Shown: piece after piece, positions 12,548 to 54,153 of the stretch
Numbering within the stretch: position 1 is the stretch's first letter
Layout: each line of letters begins with the position of its first letter
IMG/VR virus record: IMGVR_UViG_3300035682_000015
Reading direction: 5' to 3' (one strand)
DNA length: 64,000 bases
Source of the DNA: a virus
Lineage: Duplodnaviria > Heunggongvirae > Uroviricota > Caudoviricetes
Made by a program: the position numbers and the translations under genes
Notes under the pieces: model-generated
Database searches by the model: none
What the model was told of the DNA's origin: nothing
What the model saw: only the letters and a program-made list of their open reading frames with translations

Positions 12548-12745
12548 ATGAAGTTAATAATTACAGAGTCACAATATAAAACCATCAACGAGATGATTAA
12601 TCTTGATATTAAAGTTGGGGACACCATTATGGGTGGAAAGTTTAAGAATAAAAAGGTTGTTGTGAAGACAATCGGTAAGAATGAAAAGGGTGATATTACT
12701 ATAAATGGTAAGCCGTTGTTACGTTTTAGAATTATAGAAAAATGA
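12548..12745 (+). CDS. MKIIITESQ-leader family protein
   Basis: N-terminus MKLIITESQYKTINEM. Confidence 0.5.
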   Translation: MKLIITESQYKTINEMINLDIKVGDTIMGGKFKNKKVVVKTIGKNEKGDITINGKPLLRFRIIEK

Positions 12746-13072: not shown

Positions 13073-13390
13073 ATGAAAATTTTAATAACAGAAAGTAAAT
13101 TAGAGAGAGTTGCCATTAATTGGTTGAACGATAACTATGGTAATTTGGAACCATATGAAACTAAAGAGTTTCCTGGGTTAATTCTTTACTTAGAAGGTAG
13201 AACAGTAATTATTGAATATAATAAAAAAAATAAAGATGTTTATGTGAATTATGAAAAGATTTGGAAGTTTTTTAAATCCTATTTTAGTTTGGAAAATGAA
13301 CAAATTCAACATTTAATAAAGATGTGGATAGAGGAGAATTACAAATTAAAAGTAAAATCTGCGTCTTATAATAATGTGTATTTACCATAA
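13073..13390 (+). CDS. family-C paralog (MKIxITESK...WLxxNYG...YNKKNG)
   Basis: Paralogous to 20176, 20554 and 49405 genes. Confidence 0.55.
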   Translation: MKILITESKLERVAINWLNDNYGNLEPYETKEFPGLILYLEGRTVIIEYNKKNKDVYVNYEKIWKFFKSYFSLENEQIQHLIKMWIEENYKLKVKSASYNNVYLP

Positions 13391-13391
13391 T

Positions 13392-13790
13392 ATGATAGAG
13401 TTAATAAAAAGAGTATTAAGAGAAGAAATAGAGACCAAGACAAAAGTTTTGGTCTATATCTATTTTTGTGACTACAAAGATGAGAACTTTAGGGAGTATG
13501 TTGATAGATTTAGAAATATGGATATTGATTTTTGGGTTAAACCGAGCAAAGGGCATCACAAAGGGTTCTCCATTCAATCTATATTAGATACTGATGATAT
13601 GTATGAGGCCAAACACATTTCAAGGGACATTTCCCGTGAATTTGATGATGATATATTAATTGTGTTATCAAAACAAAGAGTAACCAATATAGAACCTGTG
13701 GGTGAGAATAATGAAGATGTGTTTGTTAAACCCGGAAGAAAGTTTGATGAGTTGGTTTATAAAGGTAAGAAAGGGATTTATGTAATATGA
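13392..13790 (+). CDS. hypothetical protein
   Basis: Start at MIELIKRVLREE after upstream stop. Confidence 0.5.
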   Translation: MIELIKRVLREEIETKTKVLVYIYFCDYKDENFREYVDRFRNMDIDFWVKPSKGHHKGFSIQSILDTDDMYEAKHISRDISREFDDDILIVLSKQRVTNIEPVGENNEDVFVKPGRKFDELVYKGKKGIYVI

Positions 13791-14899: not shown

Positions 14900-14997
14900 A
14901 ACGGTTTATTTTAATTAGAGTACAAAGATACACTAATATTTTAACTTACCAAATTATTTGACAAAATAATTCATTATGTCTATTATTGTGAGGTAAA

Positions 14998-15573
14998 ATG
15001 ATTGATATGAAATTAAACGAACAATTAACAAAAATTAAATCAATGATGGGAATCAATGAAAACAAACAATCTTATCCATACTCTTGTGCTATGTTATACT
15101 TTAACCCGGATTCGGTTACAGAACTACATAGTAAAATAAACCCGGAGGACCTATACACAGAAGAAGATGGGTTTGGTTTAGAACCGGAATCACACTGTAC
15201 GTTACTATACGGATTACACGATAATGAGGTTGATATTGAAGATATTATTAACGTAATAAACAAATACTCTTACACAAATTGTAAGGCACATAACCTATCT
15301 TGTTTTAACAATCCAAAGTATGATGTGTTAAAATATGATATAATGGGGGATAATCTAAGTGAAACTAATGAGGAGTTAAAACAATTCCCATTCACAAGTG
15401 ATTACCCGGACTATCACGCCCATATGACCGTGGCATATCTTAAACCGGGTAAAGGTAATCATTATATTAATATGTTGGGTGATGAATACAAAGAAATGGT
15501 AATGACACCTCAACACGCTGTGTATTCAAGAACTGATGGTACCAAACACAAAATACCGGTTAGGTTTACATAA
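14998..15573 (+). CDS. 2H phosphoesterase superfamily protein (LigT/Acb1-like)
   Basis: Two H-x-T-x motifs 76 aa apart: HCTLLYGL (aa 66) and HMTVAYL (aa 142), matching HxTLxFxG / HxT[LV]A of LigT-type 2H enzymes. Confidence 0.55.
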   Translation: MIDMKLNEQLTKIKSMMGINENKQSYPYSCAMLYFNPDSVTELHSKINPEDLYTEEDGFGLEPESHCTLLYGLHDNEVDIEDIINVINKYSYTNCKAHNLSCFNNPKYDVLKYDIMGDNLSETNEELKQFPFTSDYPDYHAHMTVAYLKPGKGNHYINMLGDEYKEMVMTPQHAVYSRTDGTKHKIPVRFT

Positions 15574-15646: not shown

Positions 15647-15799
15647 GGTCAAGTGGCGAAAATGGTAGACGATAAGCACAGTGCGTGTGTGAGAGTTGTG
15701 ATGTAAGCTGGGGTGTACAACCCGGAGATTCCAATTATGGATTCAGTGGCGAACGCAAATAGCCATTAACTCGTACAGGTTCGAATCCTGTCTTGACCA
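15647..15799 (+). tRNA. tRNA gene with ~65-nt insertion (candidate intron); type-II (Leu-like) D-arm; anticodon unassigned
   Basis: Perfect 7-bp acceptor stem GGTCAAG/CTTGACC. T-arm ACAGG-TTCGAAT-CCTGT. D-loop GGCGAAAATGGTAGACG. Discriminator A. 153 nt total. Confidence 0.55.
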
Positions 15800-15839
15800 C
15801 AAATATATAAAAAAAGTTTGGATATATAAAAAATAGTAT

Positions 15840-15847
15840 TATCTTTG
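15840..15847 (+). promoter_or_regulatory. -7 promoter element TATCTTTG (copy 1 of duplicated 47-nt promoter unit)
   Basis: Identical unit at 16246-16292. Confidence 0.5.
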
Positions 15848-15874
15848 TGCTCAATATTAATTAAAAAAAAGACT

Positions 15875-16252
15875 ATGACAAAAACTCAGGAATATTTGAA
15901 AAACAAAAAAATACAAGAAATGGGTTTACCTAAATTGTATGTTGTTAAATCTTCCCCTGATGGGGTTGAAAAACCTATTGAGAGACAGGTTGTTGAAATC
16001 GAAGAAAATGTTGCGTTTAGAGGTAAAGAAAGATTACCGATTGACCGATACAAAGTTGAAAATGGTTATCCTTATGAAATAGATTTTCTTAGAGGTGAAA
16101 ACACTACAAAAGAAGATGGATACGGTTCAGGGATAGGTGATTTATGGGGTTGGTCGTATTTTTCAACCTTTTTAGAAGAAGAGGCTAAGATGTATTACAA
16201 CTTAGAGTTAAGTAGAGTTCAAAAAAAATATAATAAAAGTTTAACTATATAA
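15875..16252 (+). CDS. hypothetical protein
   Basis: ATG MTKTQEY; track start is TTG inside promoter. Confidence 0.5.
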   Translation: MTKTQEYLKNKKIQEMGLPKLYVVKSSPDGVEKPIERQVVEIEENVAFRGKERLPIDRYKVENGYPYEIDFLRGENTTKEDGYGSGIGDLWGWSYFSTFLEEEAKMYYNLELSRVQKKYNKSLTI

Positions 16253-16262
16253 AAAATAGTAT

Positions 16263-16270
16263 TATCTTTG
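16263..16270 (+). promoter_or_regulatory. -7 promoter element TATCTTTG (copy 2)
   Basis: Duplicate of 15823-15870. Confidence 0.5.
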
Positions 16271-16299
16271 TGCTCAATATTAATTAAAAAAAGAAAATT

Positions 16300-18096: not shown

Positions 18097-18594
18097 ATGA
18101 ATTTACAAGAGAATATAATTAGAATACAGGAAATGATGGGGATTATCTCTGAGGCTAAATCTTCATATACTGTATCTCAGATAAAGAAGGGGTTAAATAA
18201 GTCAGAAAACGACAAAGATATAACAATTAATACGAGTATTGATAATGTTATAGATAATATTGACCAATTTGAGTTTGAGATTGGTTCTGTAGAATCATTT
18301 TTAGATGATGAGAACAGTTTCACATCGGATTCGTTGGTGGATAAACTTATATCTTACGTCAAAGATAAGAATTTAAATATTGATATATCTAAATTGATTG
18401 AGTACAACAATTATAGAAAGGAGTACGATAAGAATGATGATAAAGTGTTTGAACTTTTATATAACACACACCCTGATGATGACTATTCAGAGGAGATAGA
18501 TAGGTTACGTGATAGAAATGATGAGTTATATAAGTATTTTGATTTACTAAAACAGGAAACCTTAAAGATTAAACAAGAGATTATTAATTTATAA
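18097..18594 (+). CDS. MNLQENI-leader family protein
   Basis: MNLQENIIRIQEMMGIISE. Confidence 0.5.
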   Translation: MNLQENIIRIQEMMGIISEAKSSYTVSQIKKGLNKSENDKDITINTSIDNVIDNIDQFEFEIGSVESFLDDENSFTSDSLVDKLISYVKDKNLNIDISKLIEYNNYRKEYDKNDDKVFELLYNTHPDDDYSEEIDRLRDRNDELYKYFDLLKQETLKIKQEIINL

Positions 18595-23684: not shown

Positions 23685-24380
23685 ATGGGGGAATTAAAAA
23701 TAAAGTACTTACTCCGATTATCATATTCTCAAAGAATGGGGATTTATATTAAATATAAAGCAGGTTGGAGTCTACTCTTCCACCACTCGGTACGCCCCCA
23801 TCCGGACTATCTACCGGTAATGTGGTACAAAGATATAACAAATAATCTACACCACCAAATAAAATGGGGAAAGATTATTAATTATTATTTCAATATATTT
23901 ATATGTATGATAGAGACAAAACCTAAAGATATAACCCCAATCAAAAGAAAGGGGATAGATATGACCGTTAAAGGTCTACAAAAGAAATACCCATTCATAA
24001 TAGGATATAAGGATGATACAACAACTCAATATATATCATTACACTACATTGATTTAATAATAGACCTCAACAAACTATCTGAGTATGCGGATGTCCCGGT
24101 TAACCCATATTGGGAATCATATGTACTTGCGAACCCCCAATACGAAAAAGTATATGCCTTATGGTCCTATTTAGAATTCCCCAATAATGATTTGTTTGGG
24201 GATATTAAAGACCATCCCGGATATATAATACAACAGAAGGTAGTAGAGGACCTCGAATTTATATACTCACACCTACCATCTCAACTAACACTACACTATA
24301 CTCCCAAATCAACTTTCTTCCCCGATGACCCACCAACTTATACCGTGAGATTAAAACCTAACGCATATCTAATGAGGTAA
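23685..24380 (+). CDS. hypothetical protein of island (candidate initiator; start uncertain)
   Basis: 231 aa ORF; stop is immediately followed by 3x23-bp iterons. Confidence 0.35.
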   Translation: MGELKIKYLLRLSYSQRMGIYIKYKAGWSLLFHHSVRPHPDYLPVMWYKDITNNLHHQIKWGKIINYYFNIFICMIETKPKDITPIKRKGIDMTVKGLQKKYPFIIGYKDDTTTQYISLHYIDLIIDLNKLSEYADVPVNPYWESYVLANPQYEKVYALWSYLEFPNNDLFGDIKDHPGYIIQQKVVEDLEFIYSHLPSQLTLHYTPKSTFFPDDPPTYTVRLKPNAYLMR

Positions 24381-24449
24381 CACTCCCGTTGGTTGGTCTC
24401 TGACACTCCCGTTGGTTGGTCTCTGACACTCCCGTTGGTTGGTCTCTGA
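24381..24449 (+). repeat. 3 perfect tandem copies of 23-bp unit CACTCCCGTTGGTTGGTCTCTGA
   Basis: Read directly: copies at 24381, 24404, 24427. Confidence 0.9.
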
Positions 24450-24558
24450 CACCATGTCATGTTAATAACTTTGTTGATAACTTTTTACCTTAACTTATTA
24501 ACAATGTCATACTGTCATGTTGATAAGTTTTTTTGGATATGTCAAATATACCCCCACT

Positions 24559-24589
24559 CCCCCCATCTTTTACCGGGGGGTTTTTTTTT
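24559..24589 (+). terminator. intrinsic terminator
   Basis: CCCCCC-loop-GGGGGG + T9. Confidence 0.5.
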
Positions 24590-24846
24590 AACCCCTCCCC
24601 TAAACACCCCCCATACCCCCTCCCTATCCCCCGTGGGGGTATCCCCCCTCCCCTCCCTCCCCCTTATATAACCCAAATAGGGGGGATAATCCTCTCGATG
24701 ACGTGTATGGGGGAAAAAAACTTTATATGAAAATCGTTTTAAAATTTCTAAAAAAATTTTTGGAAAAAATCCCCCGGTATAAATGGGGTGGTCAAATAGT
24801 GAAAAAAAATTTTTGGAAAAAAATTGATTGTAAAAGGGGAATATCT

Positions 24847-24912: not shown

Positions 24913-25401
24913 ATGATGATAAGTAAATTAAAGATGTTAAAGATTGGGGAGACCTTGAAGGATTTTAAGTGTTTGGTTTCAAGATTTAATGAGGTAAAGG
25001 GTGATAGAATATTATTGAGGGAGTTCTGTTTAAGAAATAGAAATCCCATATGGGATTTAACGGGTATAAATTATTTCAAGACCGGATTAAAATCTGAGGG
25101 ATTGATTCGGGATGGGGGTAAGAAAAAGGATGACCATTATATTCAAAGGTCTTTATGTATGGAGATTATCTTTAAGGAATTGAATGCTAACCCGGATATG
25201 AATGTTGATGAATTTATTGAATTACTTCGTAAGTATTCATCTACAGTTCAATTGACGGAAGAGGAACATAAGAAAATAACATTATATACGAGGAATACTG
25301 ATATTATGAATTATACGGCTTATGGTGATGTTGGTATAATTGTTAAAGGTCTTAAGGAGATTATTAATTCTACCCCCGCTTATGTAGTTGGGGGTTTGTG
25401 A
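24913..25401 (+). CDS. hypothetical protein
   Basis: ATG MMISKLK; track start is GTG. Confidence 0.5.
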   Translation: MMISKLKMLKIGETLKDFKCLVSRFNEVKGDRILLREFCLRNRNPIWDLTGINYFKTGLKSEGLIRDGGKKKDDHYIQRSLCMEIIFKELNANPDMNVDEFIELLRKYSSTVQLTEEEHKKITLYTRNTDIMNYTAYGDVGIIVKGLKEIINSTPAYVVGGL

Positions 25402-25402
25402 A

Positions 25403-25449
25403 CCCGAACTCCCTCCGGTCGGGATTCAATCCCCCCGCCCCCTTTTTTT
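25403..25449 (+). repeat. conserved C-rich post-gene element, copy 1
   Basis: AACCCnnACTCCCTCCGGTCG..ATTCAA.CCCCCCGCCCCC-T7 shared with 26877 and 33227. Confidence 0.7.
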
Positions 25450-25473
25450 ATGAAAATTAATATATTTATTAGT

Positions 25474-26067
25474 ATGAAAAATTTGTTAAACGAAGAGATT
25501 GGTAAAATTAAAAAAATGATGGGTATATCTCATAAACCAATCAACTTACCTTATCACGAACATCTTATTGAAATTTATTCTGATATTCCCACCGAAATTA
25601 CTGAAAACTCTGAGGTTGATGATAGATATATTGTTATAAATAAAATTAAACATAACGATTTTATTCATAGTCCAAAATTATTTTTGAAGTCTATTAGAAA
25701 ATCATCTCGTGGTGAGATGTTAACCGAATATTCTTTGGAAGAATTGGAGGATATGTTAACATTTAAGTTGGATGGTTATGATATTGGTTATGCTTTGAAG
25801 AAAGGTGATGGTGATGAGTATAATGAAATTGTGTCTGTTTTCAATAATTCGGGAATTAAAGGTATTGGTGATGCGTTAATTAAGTCAGCAATTAAAAATG
25901 GTGGTCGTTATTTGGACCATTATGATGGATTTCTAAGTGGTTTTTACTCCAAACACGGGTTTGAGGAGTATAAACGAGATAAATTTGACCCCCAATATGA
26001 CCCAAACGGTGAATTTAGAGATAAATACGGAGAATCTGATATTATCTATAGAAAATACAACACTTAA
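25474..26067 (+). CDS. GNAT-family acetyltransferase-like protein
   Basis: Motif A-like NSGIKGIGDALIKSAIKNG and GFYSKHGFEEY; weak. Confidence 0.4.
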   Translation: MKNLLNEEIGKIKKMMGISHKPINLPYHEHLIEIYSDIPTEITENSEVDDRYIVINKIKHNDFIHSPKLFLKSIRKSSRGEMLTEYSLEELEDMLTFKLDGYDIGYALKKGDGDEYNEIVSVFNNSGIKGIGDALIKSAIKNGGRYLDHYDGFLSGFYSKHGFEEYKRDKFDPQYDPNGEFRDKYGESDIIYRKYNT

Positions 26068-27546: not shown

Positions 27547-27690
27547 ATGAGAGATAGAATAAAAAAATGGTGGAATAGGACTTGGTCCAATTGGGAGGTT
27601 GATACTAAGAGTAAGTGGTATTTTTATATTATACTTAAGAGAACATCCAACGATGGTTTAATCCAATTTAAAAAAATAAAAACTGGGGTA
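27547..27690 (+). CDS. small basic protein
   Basis: 47 aa; ATGA overlap with next. Confidence 0.3.
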
Positions 27691-28217
27691 TGAAAAACAT
27701 TTATTTAATTCCGACAGATAAACGGACTCGATTACATTATGACCACACCGGTTTATTTTTATCTCACCATTATCAGGTAAGTAAGGAGATTAATTCAATT
27801 GTTGAAGGCAGATATATCTACATTACATCGGATGAATACATTGGGTTGAATTGGTATATTGATGGTGGCTGGGTAAGAAAGGGTGTTATTGATGATAAGG
27901 ATTATTGGTCTGTTAGAAAGGATTATAAAAAAATCGTTATAACCAATGACCCCAAGTTAATTAAGGATGGCGTTCAGGATATTGGGGACGGTGTGATGGA
28001 TTGGTTCATTGAGAACCCCACCTGTGAATACTTCAATATTGAACAGTACAATTCATATGGGATTGATAATTGGAAGTACTTGGTAACTCTTCCAACGGAT
28101 AAGATTGACTTTGAAAAGGAGTTATCTAAATGGGGTTACAATAAGGGTAATTCAATTGACGTTGAGATTTTGGTTAATGAGATACTTCCAAAATTATTTG
28201 AACAATTTAAAAAATAA
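27690..28217 (+). CDS. modular paralog 1 (N-module MKNIYLIPTDK + diverged central module)
   Basis: Tandem array member. Confidence 0.55.
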   Translation: MKNIYLIPTDKRTRLHYDHTGLFLSHHYQVSKEINSIVEGRYIYITSDEYIGLNWYIDGGWVRKGVIDDKDYWSVRKDYKKIVITNDPKLIKDGVQDIGDGVMDWFIENPTCEYFNIEQYNSYGIDNWKYLVTLPTDKIDFEKELSKWGYNKGNSIDVEILVNEILPKLFEQFKK

Positions 28218-28225
28218 ATAAGATT

Positions 28226-29071
28226 ATGAAAAACATACACGTATTAGGAACAGATAAACCAACTTTTTTACATAAAAGTACAAAAACAGGTATTTTAATG
28301 AAATCATCCGCTTGTATTAATGATATGAAACAAGCACAAGGAATGAACATTTACATCACTTCTGATGAAATAGTTACAAAATATTCAAATGGTTTGTATT
28401 TTATTGATATTTACACAAACACAAGACATATATTTTCACCGATTTATATTAATAAAGATACTATTGCTTTTGGAAAATTTCACACATATATGAATGATGG
28501 TGGTATGTGTAAAAAAATCATCCTAACAACAGACCAAGACTTAATCAAAAATGGTGTACAAGCTATTGATGATGAGTTTTTAGAATGGTTTGTTAAAAAT
28601 CCAAGTTGTGAAAAAATTAGAACTTATTTGACTAAAGTTTTACAAAGTGGTAATCCAACATTTTATAAAGATGATTACAGAATAATCATTCCAAAAGAAG
28701 AACATAAATGTACTTGTGAAAATGGACACCCATATAACAATCTTTGTTGTAAAATACATGGTAAATTCATAAAAGAAGAACCTAAACAAAAATATAAAGA
28801 CTGTAATGGCAATTTAACAGATTGTACTTGTATAGAAGATACTATTGAAATGAAACAAGAAACACTTGAAGAAGTAAGAGATTTATCATATTATAAAGCT
28901 AATGCTGAAGAAGATTATTTAGCAGTTCCAATAAGCGTATTGAGATATATTTCTCAATTAGAGCAACAAGAAAGAAGTTATAGTGAGGAAGATTTAGAAG
29001 TAGCTTATTTTGAAGGTAGAGAAGGATTATATTCATTCAATGATTGGTTTGAACAATTTAAAAAGAAATAA
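28226..29071 (+). CDS. modular paralog 2 (N + central + Cys-rich insert + C-module)
   Basis: MKNIHVLGTDK ... ILTTDQDLIKNGVQAIDDEFLEWFVKNPSCE ... QQERSYSEED..WFEQFKKK. Confidence 0.55.
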   Translation: MKNIHVLGTDKPTFLHKSTKTGILMKSSACINDMKQAQGMNIYITSDEIVTKYSNGLYFIDIYTNTRHIFSPIYINKDTIAFGKFHTYMNDGGMCKKIILTTDQDLIKNGVQAIDDEFLEWFVKNPSCEKIRTYLTKVLQSGNPTFYKDDYRIIIPKEEHKCTCENGHPYNNLCCKIHGKFIKEEPKQKYKDCNGNLTDCTCIEDTIEMKQETLEEVRDLSYYKANAEEDYLAVPISVLRYISQLEQQERSYSEEDLEVAYFEGREGLYSFNDWFEQFKKK

Positions 29072-29075
29072 AATT

Positions 29076-30035
29076 ATGAAAAACATACACATTTTACCAA
29101 CAGATAAACCAAGTAGGTTATGGATGACTAAATTAGGTAATCTAACAAGATGCCACGATATAAAACCTATTAAAGAAGCATTAGGAAATAATGTAAATAA
29201 CTACATCACTTCTGATGAAGAAATTAAAGAAGGAAATTGGTTTGTAAAACCTAAATATTCAAAAGCAATTAAAATTGGATATGAGATTAGTCAAGCTGAT
29301 TCATCTTTTTTTGGAGGGTATGGTTATGATTGGACTGATTGTAAAAAAATCATCTTAACAACAGACCAAGACTTAATCAAAGACGGTGTACAAGCTATTG
29401 ATGATGAGTTTTTAGAATGGTTTGTTAAAAATCCAAGTTGTGAGTTTGTTGAATTGAATAGAAACTATAATCGGGGTAATGGAAAATATTATTACAAAAT
29501 CATCATTCCAAAAGAAGAAGCTAAACAATTATTTACAGACTACCCAATTATTGAATTAGGTGATGACGAATTTAAAGAAGCACCAATAAGAGAATGTGAA
29601 TTACTTTCTTTTGATGATGATGATAATAAGTACTGCTATGTAAAAGTAGGAGGTATTGAAAAAGAAATTAAACGTTGTTATATATACCCACAAAAAGGTA
29701 GATGCGGTGACGTTAATTGTGTTTCAATTAAAGAAATAAAAGAGTTGTTAAAAGAAGAACCTAAACAAGATGCTATTGAATATTCATTAAATGCTTTTAA
29801 AGTTCCAAAAGAATATTTTGGAAAACAAGAAACACTTGGAGAAGCATTATCTGAACATATAAAAGATATAAAATATCCTACTCTAATACAATGTGCTAAA
29901 TTTGGTGCTAAATGGCAACAACAGAGAAGTTATAGTGAGGAAGAAGTTTTAGACTTATTACAAGATTTTGCTAATGACTTATCTGATAATGTAATTAATA
30001 TTAAATTTTGGTTTGAAAAATTTAAAAACAAATAA
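29076..30035 (+). CDS. modular paralog 3
   Basis: MKNIHILPTDKPSRL; central module 97% nt-identical to paralog 2. Confidence 0.55.
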   Translation: MKNIHILPTDKPSRLWMTKLGNLTRCHDIKPIKEALGNNVNNYITSDEEIKEGNWFVKPKYSKAIKIGYEISQADSSFFGGYGYDWTDCKKIILTTDQDLIKDGVQAIDDEFLEWFVKNPSCEFVELNRNYNRGNGKYYYKIIIPKEEAKQLFTDYPIIELGDDEFKEAPIRECELLSFDDDDNKYCYVKVGGIEKEIKRCYIYPQKGRCGDVNCVSIKEIKELLKEEPKQDAIEYSLNAFKVPKEYFGKQETLGEALSEHIKDIKYPTLIQCAKFGAKWQQQRSYSEEEVLDLLQDFANDLSDNVINIKFWFEKFKNK

Positions 30036-30036
30036 G

Positions 30037-30261
30037 ATGAAAGAAACACTTGAAGAAGCTGCTGAAAGAAGATTTCCAAGTAAAACGGAAATGTACGATG
30101 TTTTTATTGAAGGCTCTAAATGGCAACAAGAACAAGACAAGAATAAGTATAGTGAGGAAGATATGCACAATTTAATGGATGAATACCAAAATTGGTTATT
30201 TAATACTAATACCGTAGTATTAACTTTTAGAGAATGGTTTGAACAATTTAAAAACAAATAA
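30037..30261 (+). CDS. stand-alone C-module protein
   Basis: KWQQEQDKNKYSEEDM...WFEQFKNK. Confidence 0.45.
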   Translation: MKETLEEAAERRFPSKTEMYDVFIEGSKWQQEQDKNKYSEEDMHNLMDEYQNWLFNTNTVVLTFREWFEQFKNK

Positions 30262-30265
30262 AATT

Positions 30266-31276
30266 ATGAAAAACGTACACGTACTACCAACAGATAAAAC
30301 GAGTAGGTTAGTTTTAGATGTAAACAATAATTTAGCATTAGCCTTTAATAAATCTATTGAAGAAAATGCGCTGTATAAAAGAACCATCTACATCACTAAT
30401 GATGAAGAAATTAAAGAAAATACCAATGTAAAAGACAAATGGGTAATTTCTGAATATGGTTTTGTTGTAAAAGCAGATAGGATTGAAAACAATTACCTTA
30501 TACACTCAACTGGAGGTTCTAATTTTTTACATCATTATAAATTTATAATTATGACAACAGACCCTCAACTTATTCAAGATGGTGTACAACCTATTGATGA
30601 TGAGTTTTTAGAATTTATAGTTAAGAATCCAAGTTGTGAGTGGGTTGAGGTTGACAAAAATTGGAATTACCCATTAGATAAAAGTTGGGAATATAAATTA
30701 AGAATCATTCCAAAAGAAGAACCTAAACAACTATTTACAAAAGGAGATAAAGTATTGTTTACAGGAAAAATGTTAGATGAAAATGTTGTTGATAAAGTAG
30801 TAACAGTATTTTATACATTAGGTAGAGGAGAGATAGATGATATGTCAGATATAATGGATGAATACACTCACGTTTATAGAGTTTGGAATAAAGATTTAAA
30901 ACACACTTCAAAAGAAGAACCATTAAGTTTTGAAGAATTTAGAAAAATTGCTTCTAAAGAATTACTTGAAAAATTTGATACTGATTGTTTAGAATATTCA
31001 GAAGATGGAGATTTTGATAATTACTTTTACGCTAATTGTAAATATTGGGAAAGTAAACTAAAAGAAGAACCTAAACAAGAATTTGGTTATACTACTAAGA
31101 TGGGTGTTGAGGTTAAGGATGAGATGGTTAGACCACTTATGGTTCCAAAGAAATATTTTGGTGAGGTGGAACATCCGGATTATAGTTCAGTGTTTGATTT
31201 TTTATCCGATAAGGATTACTTAACAGACAAACGAGAAGTTATTGAGAAAGAATTTAAAGAATATTTAAAAAAATAA
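30266..31276 (+). CDS. modular paralog 4
   Basis: MKNVHVLPTDKTSRL; PKEEPKQ linkers x2. Confidence 0.55.
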   Translation: MKNVHVLPTDKTSRLVLDVNNNLALAFNKSIEENALYKRTIYITNDEEIKENTNVKDKWVISEYGFVVKADRIENNYLIHSTGGSNFLHHYKFIIMTTDPQLIQDGVQPIDDEFLEFIVKNPSCEWVEVDKNWNYPLDKSWEYKLRIIPKEEPKQLFTKGDKVLFTGKMLDENVVDKVVTVFYTLGRGEIDDMSDIMDEYTHVYRVWNKDLKHTSKEEPLSFEEFRKIASKELLEKFDTDCLEYSEDGDFDNYFYANCKYWESKLKEEPKQEFGYTTKMGVEVKDEMVRPLMVPKKYFGEVEHPDYSSVFDFLSDKDYLTDKREVIEKEFKEYLKK

Positions 31277-51951: not shown

Positions 51952-52125
51952 ATGGGACTTATAAATAATCTTTATGCTGTGTATGAAAAATCACCGGCAC
52001 ACGGGAGCAAAGAACATAATGTAATTTTGGCTCCTTTCAAAACTAAAGAAGAGGCAGAACAAAACAGAATTAAATACGGTTATAACACCGATAATTATTA
52101 CGTAGATATTTTGAAATATGAATAA
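51952..52125 (+). CDS. hypothetical small protein
   Basis: 57 aa, stop overlaps thyA start. Confidence 0.3.
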   Translation: MGLINNLYAVYEKSPAHGSKEHNVILAPFKTKEEAEQNRIKYGYNTDNYYVDILKYE

Positions 52126-53266
52126 ACTAGATAAACAATACACAGACCTTCTCCAAGACATTCTTGACAACGGAGTAACAAAACAAGACAGAACAGGTAC
52201 AGGGACAATCTCAGTATTCGGAAGACAAATACGTCACGATATGAAAGATGGTTTTCCTCTTTTGACTACAAAGAAAATGCCATTCAAAACAATCGTAACA
52301 GAACTTCTTTGGTTCTTACGAGGAGATACCAACATTAAGTTTTTGGTTGATAATAATTGTCATATTTGGGATGGTGATTGCTACAAATCTTATAAACAAA
52401 GTATTTTAGAATCCTTTGATAGATTATCAAATGACCCCGTAATAGATGCGATGCCACCTAGAATATTAACACAAGAAGAATTCACCAACAAAATCAAAAC
52501 AGATGATGAGTTTGCTAAGAAGTGGGGTGAGTTAGGTCCTGTGTACGGTAAGCAATGGAGAAAGTGGGGTTATGATAGTGATAAATGGAGAGAAGACTAT
52601 AACAAATTACAATTTGGTTCTAAAGAAGAAATTGAACACCTTAGTAAAAAAGGTATAGACCAAATCACAAACCTAATCAACGACCTTAAAACAAATCCAG
52701 ACTCAAGACGATTGATGGTTAATGCTTGGAATGTTGGAGAATTAGACCAAATGGTTCTTCCACCTTGTCATTATGGATTTCAAGTTTATACAAGAGAGTT
52801 GAGTTTAGATGATAGAAAAGATATTTGGAATAAAAACAATTTCAGTCAAGATATGTCGTGGCATAATATGGAAGAACACGATATTATGGATTTACTAAAC
52901 GATAATGACATCCCAAAACGAGCAATCTCTTTAATGTTTAATATGAGGTCAAATGATGTTCCATTAGGGCTTCCATTTAATATATCATCTTATGGTTTAT
53001 TATTAGAAATTATTGGGAAAATGGTTAATATGATACCTGACGAATTAATTACTAATTTAGGTGATGCTCATATCTATAAAAACCAAGTAGATGGTGTTAA
53101 AGAACAATTAACAAGGAAACCATTTGAATTACCTAAATTAGTTATGTCTAACCAAATTAATTTTAATGAAAGTGTTGCTGAATTTTTGAATAGTTGTCTA
53201 ATAACTGATTTTATTGTTGAAAATTATCAATCACATCCAACCATAAAAATGCCATTATCTAACTAG
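52118..53266 (+). CDS. thyA: thymidylate synthase family (ThyA, long-insert type); possibly pyrimidine hydroxymethylase
   Basis: DRTGTGT, ELLWFLRGDTN, LGPVYGKQWR, LPPCHYGFQ (catalytic Cys), DVPLGLPFNISSYG; L. casei-like small-domain insert plus extra ~35-aa insert. Confidence 0.8.
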   Translation: MNKLDKQYTDLLQDILDNGVTKQDRTGTGTISVFGRQIRHDMKDGFPLLTTKKMPFKTIVTELLWFLRGDTNIKFLVDNNCHIWDGDCYKSYKQSILESFDRLSNDPVIDAMPPRILTQEEFTNKIKTDDEFAKKWGELGPVYGKQWRKWGYDSDKWREDYNKLQFGSKEEIEHLSKKGIDQITNLINDLKTNPDSRRLMVNAWNVGELDQMVLPPCHYGFQVYTRELSLDDRKDIWNKNNFSQDMSWHNMEEHDIMDLLNDNDIPKRAISLMFNMRSNDVPLGLPFNISSYGLLLEIIGKMVNMIPDELITNLGDAHIYKNQVDGVKEQLTRKPFELPKLVMSNQINFNESVAEFLNSCLITDFIVENYQSHPTIKMPLSN

Positions 53267-53322: not shown

Positions 53323-54153
53323 ATGAAAAAGTTTTTAATCTATGAAATAAAAAACAATATAAATGGTAAATCTTATATTGGACAATATAGTGGTGAGTCA
53401 TTTGAAAAGTATTTTGGAAGTGGAAAATTAATTAAGTTATCAATAAAAAAATATGGGTTAGAAAATTTTTCTAAAACAATTTTAGAAGAGTGCTTTAATA
53501 AAAATGAATTGAATGAAAAAGAAATTTTTTGGATAGATAAATTAAAAACTATTGAAAATGGTTATAATTTGACTGAAGGTGGAACAGGGGGTGATTTGTC
53601 TGAATTTATAAAGTATGGTGAGAATTGGGTTGAAAAACAAAGAATCTCCACAAAAAAATATTGGGACAATCTAACTGAAGATGAAAGAAAAAAAAGAAGT
53701 GAAATTGTTTCAGGTGAAAAAAATGGGATGTATGGTAAAGATGGATTTTGGAAGGGTAAAAAAATACCAATAGATATTATTAAAAAGTCATTGGAGAATA
53801 GAAGAAGTTACGATAAAGAACAAAACCCAAATTGGAAAGGTGGTGTTACATATGTTTATTGTGAATGTGGTAAAAGAATAGGTTATGGTCACATTCATTG
53901 TAACAAATGTAGACCTAGAACTAAAAACAATAATCCATTTTATGGGAAACAACATTCCGAAGAGACTAAAAAAAAATTAAGTGAAAAAAGGAAAGGGGTA
54001 AAACCAACAAATATGAAACCGGTAATGATTGATAATATTATTTATGAAAGTTTGGCGGAAGCGTCAAATATACTTAAAATTCCAATGGTTACAATTCGTT
54101 GGAGAGTGAAAAGTAATAATGAAAAATTTAATAATTACCAATATAAAGAATAA
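53323..54153 (+). CDS. GIY-YIG homing endonuclease
   Basis: IYEIKNNINGKSYIGQ ... NGYNLTEGGTGG; NUMOD-like repeats; Cys4 zinc finger CECGKRIGYGHIHCNKCR. Confidence 0.75.
   Translation: MKKFLIYEIKNNINGKSYIGQYSGESFEKYFGSGKLIKLSIKKYGLENFSKTILEECFNKNELNEKEIFWIDKLKTIENGYNLTEGGTGGDLSEFIKYGENWVEKQRISTKKYWDNLTEDERKKRSEIVSGEKNGMYGKDGFWKGKKIPIDIIKKSLENRRSYDKEQNPNWKGGVTYVYCECGKRIGYGHIHCNKCRPRTKNNNPFYGKQHSEETKKKLSEKRKGVKPTNMKPVMIDNIIYESLAEASNILKIPMVTIRWRVKSNNEKFNNYQYKE

Follow-up and report, generated by a model that had tools for sequence, protein, structure and literature searches.

Within the 64,000-nucleotide stretch of tailed-phage DNA analysed here in full (IMG/VR record IMGVR_UViG_3300035682_000015, Caudoviricetes; hereafter the window), the open reading frame (ORF) at 14998-15573 encodes a small protein of the 2H phosphoesterase superfamily. 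The overall explanation that we favour, with moderate confidence, is a 2H phosphoesterase confined to phages, some 170 residues long and predicted to be active, that stands behind a detachable N-terminal leader. The phage that carries the gene is very large. The enzyme is ordinary, and the unusual part is the leader, a short N-terminal tag that is swapped among related phages. While the 2H clade itself is of a known kind, an exchangeable and genome-matched leader fused to a 2H enzyme appears to be new, and a literature search on the leader motifs KLFEEF and NLQENI found no description of them. The parts of the gene are as follows.

14998-15573, plus strand: 2H phosphoesterase ORF, 191 residues when read from the ATG at 14998, with its stop codon at 15571-15573.
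15007-15060, plus strand: leader of type B, M4-E21 (MKLNEQLTKIKSMMGINE), predicted as a low-confidence helix and a linker, ending I-N-E.
15061-15570, plus strand: catalytic 2H phosphoesterase domain, N22-T191, which starts at N22 as NKQSYPYSCAMLYF.
15193-15204, plus strand: first H-x-T-x motif, H66-C-T68-L.
15421-15432, plus strand: second H-x-T-x motif, H142-M-T144-V, within the DYPDYHAHMTVAY block common to Acb1 proteins.

The preliminary description of this DNA had placed the protein in the 2H superfamily on account of two H-x-T-x motifs 76 residues apart, and the motifs are indeed found there, HCTLLYGL from residue 66 and HMTVAYL from residue 142, with 76 residues between the two histidines. 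In an alignment of 58 homologues (46-86% identity) H66, T68, H142 and T144 are all invariant, which takes the motif pair far beyond chance; in the same alignment E21, the last residue of the leader, is shared by no fewer than 90% of the family members. Structure prediction followed by comparison with Acb1 and LigT had been proposed as a check, and its outcome agrees with the assignment. The AlphaFold2 model, computed with the homologue alignment as input, has a mean predicted local distance difference test score (pLDDT) of 88 and a predicted template-modelling score of 0.81. Low confidence is limited to the first ~25 residues, modelled as a helix (residues 3-17) that gives way to a linker of pLDDT under 50 (means of 56 for residues 1-10 and 45 for residues 11-20; below 50 at residues 14-23). 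Since up to E=0.1 Foldseek finds 2H enzymes and nothing else in the PDB, the superfamily assignment is secure, and the protein is almost certainly a 2H enzyme with an intact active site. The ranking of these matches is headed by Burkholderia phage BCSR5 PDE-9 (9Q2G, E=4.6e-5), followed by Usb1, FBB1 Acb1, the penguinpox cGAMP phosphodiesterase (PDE) and LigT; structural scores are 12.9 for Usb1, 12.6 for archaeal LigT, 11.4 for PDE-9 and 10.5 for FBB1 Acb1, and the highest identity among the structural matches (18-19%) belongs to Acb1-type chains. The modelled fold alone does not pick a 2H subfamily.

Most homologues are 188 residues long and begin at the equivalent of M4 in the window protein (MKLNEQ.../MELNEQ...), and the block of DNA homology with related contigs extends from 15005/15006 to 15563. 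Because the homologues begin at M4 and the DNA homology begins at 15005/15006, the true start is probably the ATG at 15007 (188 residues), rather than that at 14998. The 2H gene acts as a discrete module.

The family is essentially phage-borne. A search of ~5.8 billion metagenomic proteins yielded 342 homologues, nearly all of 175-190 residues, and 245 loci were confirmed in IMG/VR, many of them on contigs of 100-320 kb; homologues are also present in uncultured megaphages of 480-640 kb. Among 185,579 species genomes just seven loci were found, all on contigs of metagenome-assembled genomes; most of these contigs are large and probably phage. The closest viral predicted structure in BFVD is gp180 of Maribacter phage Colly_1 (template-modelling scores 0.71/0.83, 33% identity, E=2e-12). 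This protein (YP_010357429.1) and its orthologues in Molly phages belong to the same family, with tblastn identities of 36-37% over 86-88% of the query, and Colly_1, with a genome of 124 kb, is not a huge phage. A recent preprint catalogues Colly_1 gp180, a single-domain phage 2H enzyme, under the name "2H PDE 11" (Supplementary Table 1) and lists it as chosen for purification (Doherty et al. 2025, bioRxiv 10.1101/2025.08.21.671373); the family is therefore already recognised as a viral 2H phosphodiesterase. Other BFVD matches, in the Gordonia phages GMA2, Lilbeanie, Tardus and MelBins, carry 2H domains inside proteins of 550-1100 residues, and such large 2H-bearing proteins of actinobacteriophages are annotated as "putative structural protein" (GMA2) or "RNA ligase".

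The first residues of the protein had been ascribed to a leader family, MNLQENIxRIxxMMGI, seen on unrelated proteins, and this holds when the 2H protein is left out of the model. Four other window ORFs (those starting at 18097, 18594, 19366 and 25474) supplied the N-termini for a hidden Markov model (HMM); run against 432 stop-to-stop ORFs, this model picks out the start of the 2H protein with 20.2 bits (E=1e-5), the next match being at E=0.65. Among the four source ORFs, Pfam gives no match for those at 18097, 18594 and 19366, and a weak GNAT match for that at 25474. Leaders of several types recur in this way in the window and in related loci, and those relevant here are listed below.

18097-18594, plus strand: unrelated ORF with a type B leader (MNLQENIIRIQEMMGIISE); the others start at 18594, 19366 and 25474.
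Leader B, MNLQENIxRIxxMMGIxxE: on at least seven unrelated protein clusters, in the window lineage only (the window and contigs L017-L021).
Leader C, MKHIKLFEEFLNE: 94 matches on 20 protein clusters in 17 loci.
Leader D, MKxLIKKILKEE: ten matches on six clusters, including the 2H proteins of L059, L074 and L089 and the window ORFs starting at 13374 and 13787.
Leader E, xxLRMQMLAGIITE: 13 matches on five protein clusters in six loci.

Matches of leaders B to E always lie at the extreme N-terminus. Among 2H orthologues at least four mutually dissimilar leaders are found, and these match other proteins of their own genome well above a cross-lineage null; on this exchange of leader types the preliminary description is silent. 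A DNA-level explanation, namely a promoter or ribosome-binding site that happens to be translated, was rejected, as the upstream DNA is unconserved and the likeness does not extend beyond the coding sequence, in which the amino acid substitutions are conservative. We consider it very probable that the leader, of 18-21 residues, is a separable module shared between proteins. It lies outside the catalytic core, because the Colly_1 orthologue is leaderless: just nine residues (MSDSKNNRR) precede its first strand, with no [ILV]-x-E among them. According to a reading of their sequences, other leader cargo would include ATP-grasp, GNAT and ParB-nuclease-like proteins. Stereotyped N-terminal peptides are widespread in the window. 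By manual count, about a quarter of its ORFs start with one that has [ILV]-x-E near its end; starts of the form MK(I/L)IITE(S/N)K occur at 12548, 12742, 13073, 20529 (minus strand), 20877 (minus strand), 33611, 33973, 37474, 37968, 41074, 41860 and 59992 (minus strand), many of these ORFs forming one paralogous family (cluster 12), and starts of the form MKxLIKKILREE occur at 13392, 13787 and 19807.

A common feature of the leaders is the way they end. Types A, C, D and E keep their final Glu at 93-100%, with I, L or V at position P3, and conservation drops afterwards, while in type B the same [ILV]-x-Glu ending is present in most copies but is less regular. In the 2H family, all 175 distinct members that bear an N-terminal extension have [ILV]-x-E in the stretch of 12 residues that leads up to the first strand motif, with a spacing from Glu to strand 1 of 2-9 residues overall and of 4-5 residues in 166 of the 175. 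These counts are to be read against a background of 14% in control windows and 30% at the N-termini of other ORFs, against the shortness of the motif itself, and with the fact in mind that the ends of the leader seeds were chosen at Glu.

The N-terminal segment could alternatively be an enzyme lid or substrate-binding extension, comparable to residues 1-15 of PDE-9, its likeness to the leaders of other proteins reflecting a common amphipathic helix. In PDE-9, which is the top PDB match, an N-terminal lid covers the ligand on closing, the confidence of models is low for lids, and the lids of viral 2H phosphodiesterases can be situated at either terminus (Doherty et al. 2025, bioRxiv 10.1101/2025.08.21.671373). 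The conserved segment E21-x-K-Q-x-Y-x-Y stands at the location of the PDE-9 lid, the fixed spacing of 4-5 residues between [ILV]-x-E and strand 1 fits a structural or functional role, and the ending is met by chance at nearly a third of other ORF N-termini, as given above. A lid of the enzyme, however, would hardly account for leaders of 18-20 residues that recur, per type, on 5-20 or more unrelated protein clusters and in every case at the extreme N-terminus, nor for four dissimilar leaders on 2H orthologues that each match proteins of their own genome. The Colly_1 orthologue dispenses with the segment, and the leaders are devoid of the base-stacking aromatics that lids use (PMC9117128). We regard this alternative as rather doubtful.

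As a separable module outside the catalytic core, the leader more probably acts as a shared address or processing tag that ends in [ILV]-x-Glu. A known system with these traits is the capsid-targeting sequence (CTS) of phage T4, a tag of ~10-19 residues on diverse anti-defence internal proteins, exemplified by MKTYQEFIAE and by that of IPI, in which the cut falls between MKTFKEFTSTTTPVSTITE and A; it loads proteins into the prohead core, where the prohead protease cuts once after Glu. Both the T4 CTS and the leaders described here are short N-terminal peptides on unrelated, fast-evolving accessory proteins, both end in [IL]-x-Glu, and the sequence of leader C (MKHIKLFEEFLNE) is similar to that of the T4 CTS. 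There are differences too. Stereotyped N-termini are found on a far larger share of the ORFs in the window (about a quarter), which weighs against capsid targeting, and the mature 2H protein is acidic (isoelectric point 5.0), whereas the T4 internal proteins are basic. The sole protease in the window is ClpP-like, and a tblastn search with T4 gp21 gave a listing dominated by T4-like phages, uninformative for huge phages. By analogy with T4, the leader may be a capsid-targeting sequence or a cleaved propeptide, which we hold to be unlikely. The broader proposal, that the leaders of huge phages are CTS-like and that the 2H enzyme would be loaded into the prohead with dozens of accessory enzymes, trimmed after [ILV]-x-Glu and injected with the DNA, is by the same analogy a shade more unlikely again. 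In the T4 genome itself (NC_000866, 3592-4411) gene 57B, which encodes T4 Acb1, starts MMEFKDFSTG, and the adjoining ipI starts MKTFKEFTST, this being its capsid-targeting leader; the two N-termini have F-K-(D/E)-F-(S/T)-(S/T) in common, possibly by coincidence.

With regard to the substrate, we favour, tentatively, a phosphodiesterase of immune messengers rather than an RNA-end-healing enzyme. In the mechanism proposed, H66 and H142 would carry out metal-independent acid-base catalysis and T68 and T144 would hold the phosphate, the reaction proceeding via a 2',3'-cyclic phosphate or acting on one. The likeliest substrate would be a small cyclic or linear oligonucleotide messenger of CBASS (antiphage signalling based on cyclic oligonucleotides), of type III CRISPR or of a similar system, as is the case for phage Acb1 and the other viral 2H phosphodiesterases, and the outcome would be a blunting of abortive-infection signalling. 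Acb1 (T4 57B; FBB1, 7T26/7T27) and PDE-9 (9Q2G/9Q2Y) are likewise small phage 2H enzymes with the HxT/HxT tetrad, and PDE-9 is the top PDB match by sequence as well as by Foldseek. The Pfam Acb1 profile (PF23474) matches the window protein at 27.2 bits, a borderline score against the gathering threshold of 27 (E=3.6e-6, residues 66-148 only), and matches all 58 relatives at E<=0.01. When a profile of the family was compared with PDB sequences, the matches were Acb1-type chains (E 0.013-0.1) and one weaker non-2H protein (E 0.26). The Acb1-type matches arise through a common block, DYPDYxPHxT(L/I/V)(A/S)Y, in which DYPDYHAHMTVAY of the window protein aligns with DYPDYRPHITLSY of FBB1 Acb1, HPEYNAHLTLAY of BCSR5 PDE-9 and DFDDYTPHITLSY of T4 Acb1. 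Acb1 contacts its ligand through the base-stacking residues Y12, W74 and F107 and through a C-terminal lid with W147 (PMC9117128). The shared block includes the aromatic at the F107 stacking position, to which Y136 of the window protein is aligned; F103 is possibly at the position of W74 and is, apart from Y136, the sole aromatic candidate at the base-stacking positions of Acb1. The second motif of LigT has the form HxTLxR, and HxTxAY, as in the window protein, is typical of Acb1-type proteins.

Several observations weigh against the immune-messenger assignment. The window protein contains no Trp, so that the W74 contact and the W147 lid contact of Acb1 are missing, and the AlphaFold2 model ends in beta strands, with no Acb1-type C-terminal lid to be seen; two hallmark contacts of Acb1 are consequently absent. 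Identity to Acb1 and PDE-9 is 15-19% only, the core of the window protein is ~20 residues larger, and hhalign against T4 Acb1 covers 20 columns only, with a probability of 41%. The profile PF13563 (2_5_RNA_ligase2) matches 56 of the 58 relatives (best E-value 4.2e-8), with E-values similar to those of the Acb1 profile, and the RNA 2',3'-cyclic phosphodiesterase profile TIGR02258 matches 42 of the 58 (best 6.3e-6). According to the preprint cited above (Doherty et al. 2025, bioRxiv 10.1101/2025.08.21.671373), viral 2H phosphodiesterases form structural groups that differ in substrate range, and 18 messengers were all left uncleaved by two of the groups tested. To these points is added the presence of an RNA ligase, a HAD_SAK protein or a transfer RNA (tRNA) array within 6 kb in 10 of 37 lineages, detailed below. 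Acb1 and LigT had been named as the comparators, a choice borne out by the Pfam and NCBIfam profiles, which match both types across the relatives; as judged from these comparisons, the sequence distance to Acb1 and to LigT/ThpR is about equal.

The strongest rival on the side of function is an RNA end-healing 2',3'-cyclic phosphodiesterase of the LigT/ThpR type, which would open the cyclic-phosphate ends produced by anticodon nucleases of the host or by further RNase toxins, and a kinase, a phosphatase and an RNA ligase of the phage could then reseal the tRNAs or mRNAs. Besides the TIGR02258 and PF13563 matches among the relatives, it draws on a match of the 2H protein to PHROG 755, "RNA ligase" (3.3e-9), and on RNA-related neighbours in some lineages. 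On the other hand, the window protein falls under the threshold of every LigT model tested (TIGR02258, PF02834 and PF13563, the last at 15.4 bits against a gathering threshold of 27), an NCBIfam scan of it gives no match at E<=0.01, LigT_PEase matches just four of the 58 relatives and weakly, and the form of its second motif is that of Acb1. LigT/ThpR proteins (e.g., E. coli LigT, 5LDI, and P. horikoshii PH0099, 1VGJ) are, moreover, a cellular housekeeping family, whereas the family described here is phage-restricted and has no conserved ligase or kinase operon of the LigT/ThpR style around it.

The neighbourhood was examined by clustering 1,418 ORFs from 80 related loci, which represent 37 lineages, and counting neighbours within 6 kb. 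A conserved operon was rejected, no neighbour being common to more than 9-11 of the 37 lineages. An RNA ligase of the Rnl5 type (PF21189 and PF09414) lies 2-4 kb away in 14 loci (5 of 37 lineages), HAD_SAK_2 (PF18143, the HAD "Swiss Army Knife RNA repair" family) is present in seven loci (again 5 of 37 lineages), and some dozen loci have arrays of 11-28 tRNA genes at a distance of 1.2-2 kb downstream (also 5 of 37 lineages); a HAD_SAK protein is also encoded 4 kb upstream of the Colly_1 gp180 gene. Taken together, neighbours of these three kinds occur in the 10 lineages already mentioned, and they are no more frequent than thymidylate synthase (8 lineages), glycosyltransferase (9) or GIY-YIG homing endonucleases (11). 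The window, with its 93 ORFs, has neither an RNA ligase nor HAD_SAK_2 at E<=1e-5. We judge RNA end-healing to be somewhat unlikely.

The position of the gene beside a tRNA had also been put forward as a hint at its function. An element with tRNA features does stand directly downstream, but it is not a canonical tRNA: it has no anticodon arm, and tRNA-finding tools at their defaults are silent on it.

15647-15799, plus strand: tRNA-like RNA, starting 74 nucleotides past the stop codon of the 2H gene.

Over the whole window, neither ARAGORN at defaults nor Rfam at its gathering threshold reports a tRNA. A local Rfam search assigns 29.5 bits (gathering threshold 29) to RF00005 at 15647-15799, with an insertion of 87 nucleotides. 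In this element the acceptor stem is clean (7 bp), the D arm class-II-like and the T arm canonical; a canonical anticodon stem-loop is formed in none of its folds, about 87 nucleotides of unrelated hairpins standing in its place. A decoding tRNA interrupted by an intron was considered and rejected: the intron mode of ARAGORN finds nothing at defaults and, with a lowered threshold, a poor "tRNA-Ala" with an 83-nucleotide intron. No group I intron or transfer-messenger RNA came up in the local Rfam search at E<=10. Beside the 2H gene the element is confined to contigs of the window's own strain (L001-L004), and it is absent next to orthologues that are 80-88% identical; in contig L020 the 2H gene is directly followed by a 69-nucleotide repeat that in the window adjoins the 3' side of the element. 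It is an insertion specific to the strain and has no functional tie to the 2H gene. As it is absent from close relatives, and as T4 Acb1 is near tRNAs too, it carries no functional weight for the enzyme, and the earlier hint falls. Adjacency to tRNAs was likewise discarded as a clue between the two functions, since it is shared by T4 57B, a proven anti-CBASS gene: the T4 order is 57A, 57B, ipI, trna.4-.2, eight tRNAs, rnaD and rnaC, with 57B ~1.4 kb from the tRNA cluster.

RNAs of the same class are encoded in other IMG/VR contigs (L009, L010, L012, L013, L014 and L016), with the D arm GTGGCGAAAATGGTAGACG and the T arm GGTTCGAATCC; the anticodon arm is replaced throughout by 50-170 nucleotides of lineage-specific hairpins, and default tRNA finders miss the members. 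A possible, if loose, analogue is found in T4 rnaC and rnaD (the species 1 and 2 RNAs), of which rnaC has a canonical T arm (CCGGGTTCGAATCCCGG). Both these and the window RNA are 119-153 nucleotides long, lie in or beside tRNA regions and are non-decoding, but the window RNA, unlike them, also retains the class-II-like D arm and the clean 7-bp acceptor stem.

A further alternative, that the enzyme acts on another phosphodiester such as a 2'-5' oligoadenylate-like signal, ADP-ribose 1'',2''-cyclic phosphate or an undescribed messenger, is very unlikely: the 2'-5' oligoadenylate-cleaving viral 2H enzymes rotavirus VP3 and mouse hepatitis virus (MHV) ns2 are among the structural matches, and unknown signals are suggested for the groups inactive on 18 messengers in Doherty et al. 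(2025, bioRxiv 10.1101/2025.08.21.671373), but there is no specific pointer to any of these candidates and identity to such enzymes is 8-15%.

The 2H gene sits in a mosaic accessory region. In relatives whose 2H genes are 80-88% identical the flanking genes are shuffled, and further features of the intergenic DNA are found on either side of the gene.

14958-14986, plus strand: sigma-70-like promoter match, TTGACA-17-TATTAT (11 of 12 positions), directly upstream of the 2H gene.
15801-15869 and 16224-16292, plus strand: two copies of a 69-nucleotide intergenic direct repeat, 93% identical, flanking the ORF at 15875-16249.

The promoter match is the best among 14 promoter-like sites, of which shuffled sequences predict 10.0 +/- 3.6; it is a consensus match in an AT-rich genome, a weak indication at most and no evidence of function. 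In relatives the 69-nucleotide repeat is found as single copies beside other genes, for which reason it may be a portable promoter or a cassette junction, and its copies in the window suggest the boundaries of a cassette.

As regards the remainder of the window, it has a guanine-plus-cytosine (GC) content of ~30%, no close cultured phage, and genes typical of phages, such as those for thymidylate synthase, two GIY-YIG homing endonucleases, endonuclease VII and endolysin, together with a tail-fibre match. One of the 93 ORFs matches the Pfam family PF25188, Tad6, an inhibitor of type I Thoeris (E=1.3e-7), which, like the mosaic setting of the 2H gene, counts in favour of the explanation given here. 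Also encoded are two metallophosphoesterases, the ClpP-like protease (E=1.8e-48), FKBP, N-formylglutamate amidohydrolase and a fragment resembling class II aminoacyl-tRNA synthetases. The thymidylate synthase ORF (52118-53266) has 382 residues against a profile of 266 positions, an insertion of ~115 residues, and is directly followed by an I-TevI-like GIY-YIG homing endonuclease (53323-54153), an arrangement that recalls td/I-TevI of T4; the second GIY-YIG endonuclease is at 371-1198 on the minus strand. Four consecutive paralogous genes at 27690-31276 start with MKN(I/V)H(V/I)LPTDK, one of them with a weak DUF5854 match. Elsewhere, the regions 24380-24450, 24540-24720 and 25347-25463 hold a 23-nucleotide unit (cactcccgttggttggtctctga), present three times in tandem, and after it non-coding stretches of C-runs and G-runs in which GC reaches 0.71; these repeats and stretches could represent an origin, terminus or pac site, or else the boundary of a mobile element.

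The protein adds a member to the catalogue of viral 2H phosphodiesterases, from a clade that is common in huge freshwater and marine phages, and the substrate of this clade could tell whether its carriers oppose the signalling of CBASS or of type III CRISPR, or mend RNA. The leader is the more valuable lead of the two. Were the tags to direct entry into the capsid, as they do in T4, the "first-strike" proteome that uncultured huge phages inject would be predictable by a simple rule of sequence, and the exchange of the leader around a conserved core would amount to a re-addressing of horizontally acquired cargo in each lineage. In that case anti-signalling enzymes would be deliverable pre-made, and the phage would arrive already armed against nucleotide immune signalling.

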